Of a DNA stretch of 64,000 nt, positions 7,548 to 11,371 are shown piece by piece. The notes beneath the pieces were generated by a model. The model made no database searches, was not told where the DNA came from, and saw nothing but the letters and a program-made list of their open reading frames with translations. This DNA is from a virus: the IMG/VR virus record IMGVR_UViG_3300025914_000009, positions 60,984-124,983 of that record, one strand, 5' to 3'. Every line of letters starts with the position of its first letter. Within the stretch, counting starts at the first letter, position 1. The position numbers and the translations under genes were made by a program.

Positions 7548-9254
7548 ATGTTTGACAGCAAAAAGACACAGTTATTCTCCATGCCGGAGAAGAAGAAAAC
7601 GACATCTGACTCACCATTTGTGCAAGCAGGTCTCAAAAAGAAAGCTCAAGTCCTATCAGGAAATGGAGCTATCAAGTATTCTACAACAGGGAATGCTTTT
7701 GTAGACCAGTTTGGTAAGATGGGAGAGTACAAAAAGCCCAGATCTTTCTCTGATATAGAAAAAGATTGCGAAGCTCTATGGGCAATTGATCCTTTGAGGG
7801 CAATCAAGATGAGCTTTTACATACGTACAATTACCAGACCTACCGACTTATTAGGAAAAACTACTTCCATTACCCAGAGGGGTGCTGAGCTTAAGCATGA
7901 GGGTATAATGAGGCTTATATGGTTGGCTACTAAAGATCAGCAAGCTTTCATAAAGAATCTATGGGTTCTTCCAGTCCTCGGATCATGGAAAGATATTATT
8001 ACAATGCTTCAGTATGATCTTGTATATCATGGATGGGGAGGTAGAGTTTTACCATGGGTAAGATTTGGTGATCTACTATTATCTGCCCTTGGGGATAAGA
8101 ATACTTGTGAACTGGTAAAGAAATACATACCTAGTATCAAGACCAATTCAAAATGTACTACTGTAGAAGCACAGGCTGATACCATGATTGCCAAATGGCT
8201 TTGCGGACTTCTATATCCTGAATATGTAGATAGTCCTGATGAGGTGCATGGTAAGTTTCATAAAAAGTACAGGAAGATGAAAACCTCAGGTACTGCTCAT
8301 GAATGGCAAAAGCTTATTTCTCAGAAGAAATTCGATAGAATAGACTTTGGTAAGATTCATGGGCGTGCTTTATCACTCCTTGTAAGGAGTAAATTCCTGA
8401 AGCGTCAAGGCTTACAGGATAAATATGCGGCATGGGTTAAGAAGCCTACTACAGAGGTTAAATACACAGGATATGTCCATGAGCTGTTCTCAGAACTCTT
8501 CCGAGGAAGTATGAGTGCAAAATACCCAACCTTGGCAAGTGTTCCAGAACATATGAGAGATACTATCAACAAACAGTTTGTGACCCTGGTTAACAAAGGT
8601 AAATCAGAGGATCATACCACCTCTCTGATTGTTGTTAGAGATACCTCAGGCTCAATGATGTCCACAGCTACGGGCACTAACATGTCTTCCTATGGAATCT
8701 CAAAGGCATTAGGGTTATACTTTGCAGAGTTCTTGGAGGGCCCATTTGCAAACTCTTGGATAGAATTTAACAGCGGAGCCAAGATGCACCAATGGACAGG
8801 TAAGACCCCGATTGAAAAATGGTTCAATGACACAAGTTCTGTTGTGGGAGGTACTGATTTTCAATCAGTTGTGAAATTATTCTGCCAAATAAAGGCTCAG
8901 GGAGTTCCTGAATCTCAATTCCCCTCAGGGATTCTATGTATTTCGGATGGTGAGTTCAATCCTGCCATGGCAAGCAAGACCAATGTAGAAAGCATGCTAC
9001 TTACTCTAAGAAATGCTGGTTTCAGTGAGGATTATGTAAGTAACTTTGTTATTGTCTTCTGGAACATACCTAATCAGTATTATGGAGCCATGTCTAGAAC
9101 AAAGTTCGAAACATATGGAAGTATCTCAAATGTATTCTACTTTGGGAGTTATTCAGCCTCTATAGTAGCCTTCTTAACATCCAAAATTCGAACAGCTGCA
9201 GAGCTGGTAGATGTAGCTCTTGATCAGGAAGTATTAAACTTAGTAAAGCTTTAG
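7548..9254 (+). CDS. TROVE/Ro60-like helical + vWA protein (DUF2828-like)
   Basis: N-terminal GNGAIKYSTTG..FVDQF, helical body with GSWKD and YRK, C-terminal MIDAS DTSGS/GGTDF/ISDGEF and VFWN. Confidence 0.75.
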   Translation: MFDSKKTQLFSMPEKKKTTSDSPFVQAGLKKKAQVLSGNGAIKYSTTGNAFVDQFGKMGEYKKPRSFSDIEKDCEALWAIDPLRAIKMSFYIRTITRPTDLLGKTTSITQRGAELKHEGIMRLIWLATKDQQAFIKNLWVLPVLGSWKDIITMLQYDLVYHGWGGRVLPWVRFGDLLLSALGDKNTCELVKKYIPSIKTNSKCTTVEAQADTMIAKWLCGLLYPEYVDSPDEVHGKFHKKYRKMKTSGTAHEWQKLISQKKFDRIDFGKIHGRALSLLVRSKFLKRQGLQDKYAAWVKKPTTEVKYTGYVHELFSELFRGSMSAKYPTLASVPEHMRDTINKQFVTLVNKGKSEDHTTSLIVVRDTSGSMMSTATGTNMSSYGISKALGLYFAEFLEGPFANSWIEFNSGAKMHQWTGKTPIEKWFNDTSSVVGGTDFQSVVKLFCQIKAQGVPESQFPSGILCISDGEFNPAMASKTNVESMLLTLRNAGFSEDYVSNFVIVFWNIPNQYYGAMSRTKFETYGSISNVFYFGSYSASIVAFLTSKIRTAAELVDVALDQEVLNLVKL

Positions 9255-9345
9255 GGGCAGCTACAGCAAACACTATATTATACAGATTAATGCTGAACAA
9301 AATCCTGAGTGTTCTGAAGTTTCCCAGACAGGTGAATGCTGTCCC
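9254..9345 (+). ncRNA. RNA module 0 (stem + ACAGCAAA), directly after the Ro60-like stop
   Basis: ggggcagc/gctgtccc closing stem; ACAGCAAA at 9263. Confidence 0.7.
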
Positions 9346-9395
9346 GTATACTCTCTAAAAGCCTTTGGGTGAATGGATGGATTAAAAGGATTTAG

Positions 9396-9434
9396 AGGCA
9401 GGGGTGAAAATTGAGATCCCCTGTCTCTTTTTTT
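9396..9434 (+). terminator. intrinsic terminator
   Basis: aggcagggg...cccctgtct followed by a T run. Confidence 0.75.
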
Positions 9435-9446
9435 AAATTCTATATT

Positions 9447-10025
9447 ATGAAGCTATCTGAAAAGGGTAAAGATATCATTGAGGTCTTCATATTTAACATG
9501 AAATGGATCTTGCTTGCTTTCCTTATCAAATTAGGATGGGATCTTATGGTTCTAGCCTATTTTGTATACAGTCAGCCTGAACTCACTCAAGCCCAGCTGA
9601 TGCATTTCATTGAGGATGTGGATATTACAATGATTGCAATCCTTATAAAGATGATGATAGCAGGTGGTTATAACTCTTCTATATCCAAGAAACATGATTT
9701 TGATTCAGAGAATATTAGTAGTGGGCAGTTAAAGATTAAGATGGGTACATCTATCATAGGTATCTCTTCTGTTCATATGCTAAAAGTATTCATGGAGTCA
9801 GAGAATTTGACTGTGGAAGAAATATGGAAGAAAACTATTGTCCACTGTGCTTTTATTGTTGGAGGACTAGCACTATCTTTGATTGATTATTTACACTGTA
9901 AAACAGAATCTCATGAGACAATACCTACTTCTGGCTCTTTGCCTCATGTTAATAACATGGGGATGTCTGGAGAACACTCATTTCCACAGATACAAGAAAG
10001 CAAAGGTTTACACGGAGAGAAATGA
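9447..10025 (+). CDS. YqhA/UPF0114-like membrane protein
   Basis: Four TM segments; LKIKMGTSIIGISSVHML motif. Confidence 0.75.
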   Translation: MKLSEKGKDIIEVFIFNMKWILLAFLIKLGWDLMVLAYFVYSQPELTQAQLMHFIEDVDITMIAILIKMMIAGGYNSSISKKHDFDSENISSGQLKIKMGTSIIGISSVHMLKVFMESENLTVEEIWKKTIVHCAFIVGGLALSLIDYLHCKTESHETIPTSGSLPHVNNMGMSGEHSFPQIQESKGLHGEK

Positions 10026-10341
10026 TGATGGATCAGTCTTTCTTTACTATTACATATTAGCTACCTCCAATAACTATGGAGGGTCAAGCTATTATTATTA
10101 CTCCAGTAGGACTGCTGTTACTACATTCTCCCCTGCGGGCTGGTCAAACTCATCAATTGACCCAGTGAGCAAATTTGAAAACCTCAAGGAGGAGGATAAG
10201 GAGGTTGATGTTGATCTTGATGAAGAAGTTAATGGAGATATGATGGAAGAGATGCAAGACGATCCTGATATTTCAGAGGTAGGAGATGACTCAGCAGGTG
10301 ATTCCTCTGGAGATTCATCAGGGGATGGTTCAGGTGACTAA
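9913..10341 (+). CDS. putative lipoprotein with acidic tail
   Basis: Signal peptide ending ITWGC; D/S/G-rich C-terminus. Confidence 0.65.
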   Translation: MRQYLLLALCLMLITWGCLENTHFHRYKKAKVYTERNDDGSVFLYYYILATSNNYGGSSYYYYSSRTAVTTFSPAGWSNSSIDPVSKFENLKEEDKEVDVDLDEEVNGDMMEEMQDDPDISEVGDDSAGDSSGDSSGDGSGD

Positions 10342-10443
10342 TTTCAAAAGGGCACATACAGCAAACATTATAACAATTCACCTACATTTGAATTAAAAGT
10401 GTGCCCTGTTAAGGTCTGCAACAGCAAATATATCCTTGTGGCA

Positions 10444-10510
10444 CTGGGGGTCAGTGGTGGAAATCCACTCTGTGGGGAAACCCAAAGTAGCTTAGTACTT
10501 AGAGCACCAG
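10444..10510 (+). ncRNA. YrlA-type permuted tRNA mimic (unit B cargo)
   Basis: Order is T arm, GAAA-closed acceptor stem, D arm; closed by ctgg/ccag. Confidence 0.8.
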
Positions 10511-10569
10511 TTGGAGAAAAAATGCAGACCTGTTAAGATACCTAACAGCAAACAATTTGATCCTCTTGT

Positions 10570-10640
10570 GGATTAGTAGCTTAATTGGTAAAGCGCCCAA
10601 TTGATAATTGGGAGATCCTAGTTCAATTCTAGGCTTTAAA
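10570..10640 (+). tRNA. tRNA-Ile(GAT)-like element with degenerate acceptor stem (unit C cargo)
   Basis: D arm gcttaattggtaaagc; anticodon arm cccaa-ttGATaa-ttggg; T arm cctag-ttcaatt-ctagg. Confidence 0.6.
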
Positions 10641-10686
10641 GAGGTATCTGATAAGGGTTCTTACAGCAAATATTAGCAAATGGAAA

Positions 10687-10824
10687 CCTTTGGTCGGAGG
10701 TTCAAATCCTCCCCTCCCAACCAGATTTGGTGTCACCCTAAGGTGTTCAGGACAGCCAAATCTGGTGACTAATCAACCTGACCATATCTGGTTGGGAGGT
10801 AGCTCAGTCTGGTTAGAGCAGAGG
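10687..10824 (+). ncRNA. permuted tRNA mimic with encoded ACCA (unit D cargo)
   Basis: 3' half (T arm + cctcccaACCA, 10696-10723) precedes 5' half (tgggagg + D arm, 10793-10820). Confidence 0.8.
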
Positions 10825-11371
10825 ATGCAACAAAAGAACCCTGATAAGGAGACTTACAGCAAAACAACTCAACTTTCAACCGTTTATTTGAAATAGAGAG
10901 TCTCCTGATAAAGTGCCACACAGCAAATATTAATTCTTTTTCAACAAAGACCGCCCCTGGATGGGAGGAAGCTAAAGAGGTTCGATTCCTCAGGCACTTG
11001 ATAAGGTGAGCAGCAGCATTTAACTAAATAATGGCCCTAAGGTTGGGAAAACTGAAACAGTCATACCGATACTCTCATAGGTTAATACGAAAAGAGTAGT
11101 GTCAAAGGCCCCAAGGGGTACTGGCGGCTATACAAAGAATATGCTCATCTGATAAGGTCACATACAGCAAAAAGCTAAAAGCAATCATCTTGTAAATGAT
11201 AAAAACTGTGACCTGATAAGTAGAGTCTGAAAACCTAAAACATTAATTACGTACCCCCACTACAGGTTGGACTATTTCTATTATCCTACGCCAAGTTCAT
11301 TGACATATGGTTGGTGAATTATCTCCTGTTTGATTTGATAGTAGTGGTGGTATGTCTAAAACCACATTAAC

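Follow-up and report, generated by a model that had tools for sequence, protein, structure and literature searches.

The question raised by this locus is whether a phage protein of obscure family and the small stem-bounded elements around its gene belong together and, if so, as what. The locus occupies positions 7546-11214, on the + strand, of a 64-kb window (64,000 nucleotides, the whole stretch of DNA analysed here), which is the second half of the complete 124,983-bp virus record IMGVR_UViG_3300025914_000009. It comprises one open reading frame (ORF) for a 568-amino-acid (568-aa) protein (7548-9254, + strand) and ten elements of a common grammar. The original prediction saw in it a Ro60/TROVE-like protein with an array of modular non-coding RNAs, each made of a shared handle and a variable cargo. 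We consider it probable that the locus encodes a phage Ro60-type ribonucleoprotein system, in which a ring protein of the DUF2828/DUF7788 type goes with ten same-strand units that are counterparts of Y RNAs. Computation shows a Ro60-like fold for the protein, a covarying helix beside an invariant motif, strand-specific co-location of units and gene, specificity of the handle for this lineage, and tRNA-like cargos.

Each unit consists of a covarying terminal stem of 7-9 bp, the motif (A)CAGCAA and then a variable cargo. All units start nine bases before ACAGCAA, and 7-9 of these nine bases pair with the last bases of the unit; the 5' strand of 8 nt described originally does pair, but it falls short of this start. 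The first stem pair is A-U across the units and G-C in the unit called U1. Eight units, A to H, are arranged head to tail at 10349-11214 (+ strand), with linkers of 4 nt, G(A/U)UA, directly after the closing U. A linker had been proposed earlier as TG(A/T)TAA; it exists, but its true extent is G(A/T)TA, as the T belongs to the stem because stems begin with a conserved A-U pair. U1 (9254-9345, + strand) begins on the last base of the gene's stop codon and reads GGGGCAGC, t, ACAGCAAA, 68 further nucleotides and GCTGTCCC, with the tail GTATAC. The nine units named in the original prediction, the eight in tandem and the one after the stop codon, are all present in the sequence, but a tenth had been missed: U0 (7546-7607, + strand), a handle around the gene's start codon, which reads AGATGTT, tg, ACAGCAAA, 39 further nucleotides and GACATCT. 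The window holds 11 copies of ACAGCAAA against a mean of 2.84 in shuffled sequences, none of 100 shuffles reaching 11, and ten of the 11 copies lie on the + strand between 7520 and 11171. Unit G carries the core variant GCAGCATT, with GCAGCAUU standing where the other units have ACAGCAAA.

Is the stem a real RNA structure? A search for related loci with the single protein found none, and an alignment of homologs used as the query gave 80, all of them viral metagenomic contigs encoding homologs of the protein (713,908 bases). In these 80 loci the gene's strand carries 359 copies of ACAGCAA and the opposite strand 54. A search for the best stem (at least 7 bp within 300 nt) had a background of 132 in 400 random positions, and a fixed-register test was used in its place, in which a unit starts at the core minus 9 and ends at the next core minus 14, with no search for pairing. 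Positions 1-7 were all paired in 87 of 168 units between consecutive cores; at eight shifted registers only 0-7% of units were fully paired. The 87 fully paired units have 76 distinct 5' strands, with position 1 A-U in 84 of them, position 2 a purine-pyrimidine pair, position 7 C-G or G-C, and the other positions free. In an alignment of 33 short units (three of 36 were left out, MAFFT having misplaced their 3' ends), double-sided changes occur at all seven stem pairs (76 of 231 cells), and the covariation score of 0.906, against 0.250 in shuffles, was reached by none of 500 shuffled alignments. The figure of 100% paired in this alignment is circular because its units were selected for pairing, and only its covariation counts carry weight. 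The closest relative, locus L001 (70% protein identity), tells the same story unit by unit: orthologous units keep their cargo, and their stems differ yet pair. Its ortholog of U1 has the altered but pairing stem GGGGTCACC/GGTGCCCC and retains both the tail, as GTATACTC, and a hairpin with a T run that follows U1 in the window; its ortholog of unit G (L001 6202-6351) shows the canonical ACAGCAA, and the stem there, though of another sequence, pairs. The unit stem is a real, selected RNA helix, and the covariation first read from eight units is borne out by the larger set.

These data bear on the notion that the units are remnants of mobile repeats, resembling miniature inverted-repeat transposable elements (MITEs) with terminal inverted repeats, or else a chance repeat. 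An inverted repeat does bound each unit, and a gene for a GIY-YIG homing endonuclease lies just upstream. The termini of mobile elements would be alike, whereas here 87 units have 76 distinct 5' strands and all stem positions covary; the units are also strand-specific, and chance expectation is far exceeded. We find this explanation hardly credible, and CRISPR-like or MITE-like repeats were rejected on the same ground, that the stems are unlike in sequence.

A covariance model of the short units, R1, was trained on 23 metagenomic loci and the window. Across the 80 loci it gave 145 matches with an E value up to 0.01. All but one of these (144) are on the gene's strand, and 61 loci have at least one match; of the 61, 23 had supplied training sequences. 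A stricter script found at least two units in 51 of the 80 loci and none in 21; its 225 units lie downstream of the gene (161), upstream of it (47), at its start codon (10) or inside it (7). In the window, units A, E and H score 46, 40.7 and 45.5 bits with R1, and across the complete 124,983-bp genome there was no convincing match outside the locus, the sole one scoring 16.6 bits (E 0.85). The co-occurrence of handle and homologs that had been foreseen thus extends over most of the metagenomic loci, and it extends to isolates as well.

Eleven cultured phages with a DUF2828 gene were examined, with units judged by eye and by script, and in nine of them, from unrelated hosts, clear units stand beside the gene and on its strand. 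Five units come directly after the gene in Leptolyngbya phage Lbo-JY46, and three do so in Staphylococcus phage CF9. In Listeria phage A511 three units directly precede the gene and account for all three CAGCAA in 9 kb. Salmonella phage Felix O1 has four units and Bacillus phage Tsamsa three, in both cases interleaved with tRNA genes; mycobacteriophage Faith1, Enterococcus phage iF6 and Sinorhizobium phage phiM12 have three each beside the gene, and Campylobacter phage CPX has two. R1, whose training included metagenomic units only and none from cultured phages, gave 17 matches at E 0.1 or less in these phages, all on the gene's strand, in 8 of the 11 loci. A nucleotide search (blastn) of the region against cultured phages gave no match. 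CAGCAA is kept single-stranded and at a fixed distance even between phages with proteins of only about 25% identity.

As a control we took mycobacteriophage Bxz1, which has a canonical TROVE and vWA_Ro60 protein (gp220, 170 and 183 bits). Its Ro60 locus has no CAGCAA in the flanking intergenic regions and no R1 match; it has two GCCGA(A/G) sites in the spacer before the Ro60 gene, which is where YrlA is placed in the account of Chen et al. 2014 (PMC4201824). Conversely, the canonical Y RNA motif GNCGAA is absent from window 9254-11219, in keeping with the earlier claim that the handle differs from that motif. Because the flanking intergenic regions of the Bxz1 gene lack CAGCAA and 9254-11219 of the window lacks GNCGAA, there appear to be two Ro60-like lineages with two RNA handles.

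The units are often located in tRNA gene islands. In 15 loci scanned with Rfam there were 26 tRNA and 2 tmRNA matches at the gathering score; tRNA genes flank many handle arrays, and tmRNA genes (72.3 and 52.8 bits, above the cut-off) adjoin the arrays of two related phages, at L049 6922-7281 and L030 6806-7208. In A511 the neighbors of the DUF2828 gene are tRNA genes and the genes for an RtcB-type ligase and for an HD phosphohydrolase, a setting that recalls the bacterial rsr-yrlA-rtcB operon. It could be asked, then, whether the handle RNAs are real but are no partners of the DUF2828 protein, and belong instead to the tRNA/tmRNA island, for example as substrates of processing or repair or as guides. 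The arrays amid tRNA genes and beside tmRNA genes in several loci, the interleaved units of Felix O1 and Tsamsa, and the tRNA-like nature of many cargos are all in its favor. We nevertheless regard it as rather unlikely, for the units of A511, CF9 and Lbo-JY46 adjoin the gene without directly adjacent tRNA genes, the canonical Ro60 locus of Bxz1 also has tRNA genes upstream, within the stretch examined, and lacks the motif, and in 12 of 13 cases the start codon of the gene's own mRNA lies in a handle, as described below.

If the units are counterparts of Y RNAs, the protein should resemble Ro60. By sequence it belongs elsewhere. It scores 40.1 bits with Pfam DUF7788 (PF25043), above the cut-off of 27.1, and 21.8 bits with DUF2828 (PF11443), below the cut-off of 29; PF11443 is precomputed on many of its close homologs, the Atlas clusters carry the names DUF2828/DUF7788, and the homologs of A511, Felix O1 and Faith1 lie above both cut-offs. 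It also matches PHROG 850, 'RNA-binding protein' (1.6e-28), and phage annotations already call members of the family 'Ro-like RNA binding protein' or 'RNA-binding protein'. The family is large, with 2014 homologous proteins at E 0.001 among 8000 candidates scored, and 701 of 50,697 cultured phage records matched in a translated search (tblastn) with the A511 homolog.

An AlphaFold2 model built on 36 homologs had a predicted local distance difference test (pLDDT) score of 83 and a predicted template modeling score (pTM) of 0.82. With this model the 12 Foldseek matches listed for ranks 1-13 were all Ro60/TROVE (E 6.9e-6 to 6.6e-4). The best VIA-align match was 1yvp_A, Xenopus Ro60 with RNA, at Z 19.7 over 427 residues with a root-mean-square deviation of 4.4, spanning model residues 30-548 and chain residues 11-537. 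The fold had been set beforehand as a test of the prediction, and the likeness to Ro60 was found along the whole length of the protein. The ten best entries were all Ro60 (Z 13.8-19.7; 400-435 residues), including Deinococcus Rsr and the Ro60 of Thermus phage phiLo, and the rows below them were vWA domains alone, at Z 9.7 or less. The predicted domains are a TROVE-like helical ring at about residues 30-355, followed by a C-terminal vWA domain with the DxSxS motif of a MIDAS (metal-ion-dependent adhesion site), whose residues D365, S367, S369, T436 and D467 are invariant among the 36 homologs. From these predicted-fold matches, therefore, the protein is modeled as a ring of the Ro60 kind with a vWA domain, and its family is one that sequence profiles separate from TROVE.

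The gene carries a handle of its own. Although U0 was outside the training set, R1 scores it at 27.9 bits (E 0.0014). In 13 genes, that of the window and those of 12 loci, ACAGCAA forms codons 3-5 of the start MF[DN]SK, and the AUG lies within the 5' strand AGAUGUU. Twelve of these genes have, 15-45 nt downstream, a partner of at least 7 bp (...ACAUCU). Eleven of the twelve use identical codons for it; L030 departs from them with AUAUCU (Ile-Ser), where the pairing is retained as G-U. We take U0 to be a candidate site, and a likely one, of translational autoregulation.

Two further observations concern gene starts. A second ACAGCAAA stands at 7520, 35 nt upstream of the start-codon copy (window 7513-7551), with a weak 6-bp stem, ACATTT/AGATGT, that shares AGATGT with the 5' strand of U0. 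Because both use this one segment, the hairpin at 7520 and that of U0 are mutually exclusive, and together they might act as a switch around the start codon. In Acinetobacter phage ME3 (L097 2977-2995) the DUF2828 gene begins with ATGTTTGCAGCAACA, which nearly copies the start-codon motif. A promoter element was considered for TTTGACAGCAAA, which occurs twice before the gene, and was rejected as it leaves the covarying stems unexplained; a scan for sigma-70 promoters gave 12 promoter-like sites against 13.1 expected and was uninformative.

Several results weigh against a Ro60-type system and must be set beside this evidence. The kinship with Ro60 rests on the predicted fold, at about 10% identity, because sequence methods give no link: Pfam TROVE and vWA_Ro60 had no match in the 568-aa protein at E 0.1 or less, and a sequence profile search of the PDB returned no Ro60 at E 10 or less, only chance matches. 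R1 found no match in 19 of the 80 loci, some of which are truncated contigs, and neither KVP40 nor Acinetobacter phage ME3 has a clear unit within 3-3.5 kb of the gene. One clade has a single unit, amid true tRNA genes before the gene, and lacks the start-codon motif. As units are so often in tRNA islands, the co-location of gene and units could partly reflect a shared 'RNA island'. At the start codon, constraint at the protein level may account for part of the partner strand's conservation, since this strand codes for a Thr-Ser that directly precedes the conserved core.

We turn to what the handle carries. The short units A (10349-10407, 59 nt, stem AGGGCACAT/GTGTGCCCT), E (10847-10906, 60 nt, stem AGGAGACTT/GAGTCTCCT) and H (11155-11214, 60 nt, stem AGGTCACA/TGTGACCT), which like all units of the array lie on the + strand, have an A-rich single strand and a small hairpin of 5-6 bp as cargo; the fold of A has a z of -3.2, and over all loci the mode of unit length is 59 nt. 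The longer units are more elaborate. Unit B (10412-10531, 120 nt, stem AGGTCTGCA/TGCAGACCT) joins the handle to a four-way junction whose hairpins are, in turn, T-arm-like, acceptor-like (closed, with a GAAA loop) and D-arm-like, a permuted order like that of YrlA; this tRNA-like reading was made by eye and from the fold, and B has no Rfam match. Unit C (10536-10649, 114 nt, stem AGATACCT/AGGTATCT) carries a tRNA body made up of the D arm, the anticodon arm with the loop UUGAUAA, and the T arm, without an acceptor stem; Rfam tRNA matches it at 52.6 bits over model positions 6-65, and ARAGORN made no tRNA call on it. Unit D (10654-10842, 189 nt, stem AGGGTTCTT/AAGAACCCT) carries a YrlA-like permuted tRNA mimic, which folds (z -4.5) into a T arm, then a long closed acceptor stem that holds an insertion of 74 nt, and last a D arm, and joins the handle through a 6-bp stem at the position of the anticodon stem. 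Its match to Rfam YrlA (RF02553) is 31.9 bits (E 2e-4), below the 69-bit gathering cut-off.

In unit F (10911-10999, 89 nt, stem AAGTGCC/GGCACTT) a canonical T arm (GAGGUUCGAUUCCUC) abuts the 3' strand of the handle, so that stem and T arm resemble an acceptor/T minihelix; this type of cargo recurs in L001, L059 and Leptolyngbya phage Lbo-JY46. Unit G (11004-11150, 147 nt), delimited by reading the sequence, closes a 9-bp stem when folded and has a structured cargo of about 130 nt (AAUGGCCCUAAGG ... GGCCCCAAGGGGUACUGG) that is conserved in L001 and matches no Rfam family. Unit C, with tRNA, is the only unit on which an Rfam family attains its cut-off. Modules like that of unit D are found elsewhere: four other loci have long units that contain YrlA matches below threshold (24-37.5 bits), and by eye a YrlA-like module is present in the Felix O1 unit at 5927-6051 and the Faith1 unit at 4533-4654. 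At L059 5777-5836, directly after the Ro-like gene, there is a sub-threshold match to the Rfam 'freshwater-1 RNA' (31.2 bits against 72), inside a longer hairpin-bounded element (GACTACAT...ATGTAGTC) ahead of the array; this motif may be another cargo of the system.

The cargos also bear on whether the units are stand-alone RNAs at all. They could be cis-acting punctuation of a long transcript, such as processing sites, attenuators or stabilizing hairpins, as tandem units with 4-nt linkers imply a precursor and the stems are suited to be RNase or stability elements. However, processing hairpins need neither an invariant single-stranded CAGCAA at a fixed distance across such divergent phages nor elaborate, conserved cargos such as the YrlA-like tRNA mimics, and among orthologous units the cargo is retained as the stems covary. 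This makes punctuation, to our minds, very unlikely. A self-cleaving ribozyme, suggested by the likeness of CUGAUAA to the hammerhead CUGAUGA box, was rejected as well, there being no Rfam ribozyme match and the tail varying among phages (GUGAUA, GUAAAA, GGUCAU, GUAAGA).

We propose a model where the 568-aa protein would be a highly diverged structural relative of Ro60, a ring of HEAT-like helical repeats with a vWA domain, that recognizes the handle, that is, the stem with its single-stranded ACAGCAA, much as Ro60 recognizes its RNAs. The cargo would be an exchangeable module: a hairpin in A, E and H, a permuted tRNA mimic in B and D, a tRNA body in C, a T-arm minihelix in F, and the particular fold of G. 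Through these cargos the ring would probably be tethered to host RNA enzymes, or such enzymes decoyed, with tRNA-binding enzymes and exoribonucleases as candidates. The example offered earlier, of cargos that are tRNA decoys against anticodon nucleases, fits unit C, the sole cargo with an anticodon arm, but not B or D, which have none. The eight units of the tandem array probably share a single transcript that is cleaved within the G(A/U)UA linkers, perhaps by whatever enzymes process tRNA clusters. Protein free of RNA would repress its own translation by way of the start-codon handle. Binding, recruitment or decoying, and cutting at the linkers are thus drawn from the analogy with Ro60. The purpose might be RNA repair, RNA quality control or counter-defense, a role with which both the gene context of A511 and a report on Bas63 gp130, discussed below, fit.

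The surroundings of the gene and the array include other elements. After U1, at about 9398-9440, there is a hairpin with a T run, read by eye as a terminator; it is not among the sites listed in a terminator scan of the region. Between U1 and the array lie two small ORFs (9411-10025 and 9883-10341, + strand), one of which encodes a UPF0114 membrane protein (Pfam 3.7e-10) and the other a protein of 152 aa with a very acidic tail and no family. The GIY-YIG homing endonuclease gene, which has a NUMOD-like domain, occupies 6924-7499 on the - strand, immediately upstream of the Ro-like gene. The sole ARAGORN tRNA call in the window is a tRNA-Gln(UUG) of 95 nt at 15026-15120 (+ strand), which may hold an insertion or intron because 95 nt is long for a tRNA-Gln. 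A NADAR domain protein (5203-5751), a phosphoribosyltransferase-like protein (26546-27394), a NAMPT/NAPRTase-type enzyme (28863-30428) and a ThiF-like E1 (40695-41423) are also encoded in the window, a set that fits NAD+ salvage and ADP-ribose handling in counter-defense.

How close does this come to the known Ro60 systems? Ro60 is described as binding the terminal stem of Y RNA while the other end tethers partners such as PNPase (PMC4201824, PMC12135203), and Thermus phage phiLo as having a Ro60 with Yrl1/Yrl2 (PMC12135203). As in those systems, we find a TROVE ring and a vWA domain with MIDAS, here in a predicted fold; RNA genes on the same strand within a few kilobases, with more than one RNA per locus; RNA ends that make a terminal stem adjoining a conserved motif; and some RNAs with a permuted tRNA mimic of T arm, closed acceptor hairpin and D arm. 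Unlike them, the phage protein falls in DUF2828/DUF7788 and is undetectable as TROVE/vWA_Ro60 by sequence, the handle is a single-stranded (A)CAGCAA instead of GNCGAA/GGUCCGA, loci have up to 8-12 units packed in tandem and spaced by 4-nt linkers, most units measure about 60 nt and carry just a small hairpin, and the gene bears a handle on its own start codon. The gathering cut-off of RF02553 lies well above unit D and above the best relative, at 37.5 bits. The system would work like Ro60 with Y RNA or YrlA but lies outside that family as its sequence profiles and RNA motifs define it. The phage list of Chen et al. 2014 (PMC4201824) has canonical TROVE phages only and no DUF2828-type phage.

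A second resemblance leads to the amoebae. The Class I RNAs of Dictyostelium have been known since 2004 and are abundant and developmentally regulated; we know of no mechanism for them, and four proteins were reportedly pulled down with a Class I RNA by Avesson et al. in 2011. The Pfam family DUF2828, for its part, occurs in eukaryotes as well as viruses. In the Rfam scans of the window and its relatives, the Dictyostelium Class I RNA family (RF01414) was the only other one to match recurrently, with 13 matches of 21.7-33.7 bits but for one at 16.7, all on handle units and on the gene's strand and all below the 41.5-bit cut-off, none of the 15 loci having a match at the gathering score; units A, E and H of the window score 21.9, 24.7 and 24.6 bits. 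Class I RNAs are described as about 60 nt long, starting AAG and ending CUGU; their terminal stem is 6 bp long and covaries, and next to it is a motif of 11 single-stranded nucleotides, CCUUACAGCAA (Kjellin et al. 2021, PMC7919456). The same paper reports them as unique to Dictyostelia and gives the RRM protein Rnp1A as their known direct binder, and an uncharacterized protein, DDB_G0281243, is among those recovered in a pull-down with DdR-21, a Class I RNA, according to the Kjellin preprint. A DUF2828 domain is mentioned in plant papers and a tardigrade paper.

The phage short units share with these RNAs a length of about 60 nt (57-61) and a GC content in the thirties, a terminal stem variable in sequence with its pairing kept, and an A-rich variable part with a small hairpin. 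In both, ACAGCAA lies within a single-stranded motif directly after the 5' strand, with 7 of 11 nt kept, C6, C9, A10 and A11 included, and the ends agree in A-R-G at the start and C-U-G-(U) at the close, those of the phage short units being A-R...Y-U-G and those of A511 units CUGU. By contrast, the first four bases of the amoebal 11-nt motif, including U3, are not kept in phage, and the spacing from stem to motif is 1 nt shorter. Amoebal genes are single, with a DUSE (Dictyostelium upstream sequence element) promoter about 60 nt upstream, whereas phage units are in tandem or clustered, and no tRNA-like cargos are described for the amoebal RNAs. It is tempting to speculate, with the balance of probability tilted against it, that phage handle RNAs and dictyostelid Class I RNAs are one kind, the cognate 'Y RNAs' of DUF2828/DUF7788 proteins.

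A protein likened to Ro60 has been reported in a phage before. The PhageMaP preprint describes Bas63 gp130 as structurally like Ro60, encoded upstream of the phage's tRNA genes and countering the 'ppl' defense, and its authors guess that some Bas63 'tRNA genes' are Y RNAs (10.1101/2024.10.10.617714). In being described as Ro60-like by structure, gp130 is like the protein studied here, and its position, directly upstream of a tRNA stretch, is like that of the Felix O1 DUF2828 gene. It differs in that the preprint, in its available text, identifies no RNA partner. We found no description of the handle or the handle RNAs in the full-text literature. What appears to be new here is the handle RNAs; the Ro-likeness of the protein was already known from annotations and, for Bas63 gp130, from the PhageMaP preprint.

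Beyond the locus itself, a large phage protein family of unknown function gains a concrete, testable partner. The family includes model and applied phages, among them Felix O1, Listeria A511/P100, phages of Campylobacter, Staphylococcus and Enterococcus, and cluster-L-type mycobacteriophages, and its partner would be a set of modular small RNAs that Rfam does not contain and that are unannotated in the phage records examined. Ro60-type rings would fall into two lineages or more, and each would have an RNA handle of its own. Being simple and transplantable, the handle could serve as a tool. Further, phages would be seen to assemble handle-plus-cargo RNAs into 'libraries' in which tRNA mimics are numerous, which bears on RNA repair, the hijacking of host nucleases and counter-defense. 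Likewise, the resemblance to Class I RNAs makes a question open for about 20 years directly testable. Should the two prove to be one kind, Class I RNAs would partner a Ro60-like ring protein, with DDB_G0281243 as the candidate, and the DUF2828 proteins of eukaryotes, plants among them, would have RNA partners still to be discovered that bear an ACAGCAA handle.

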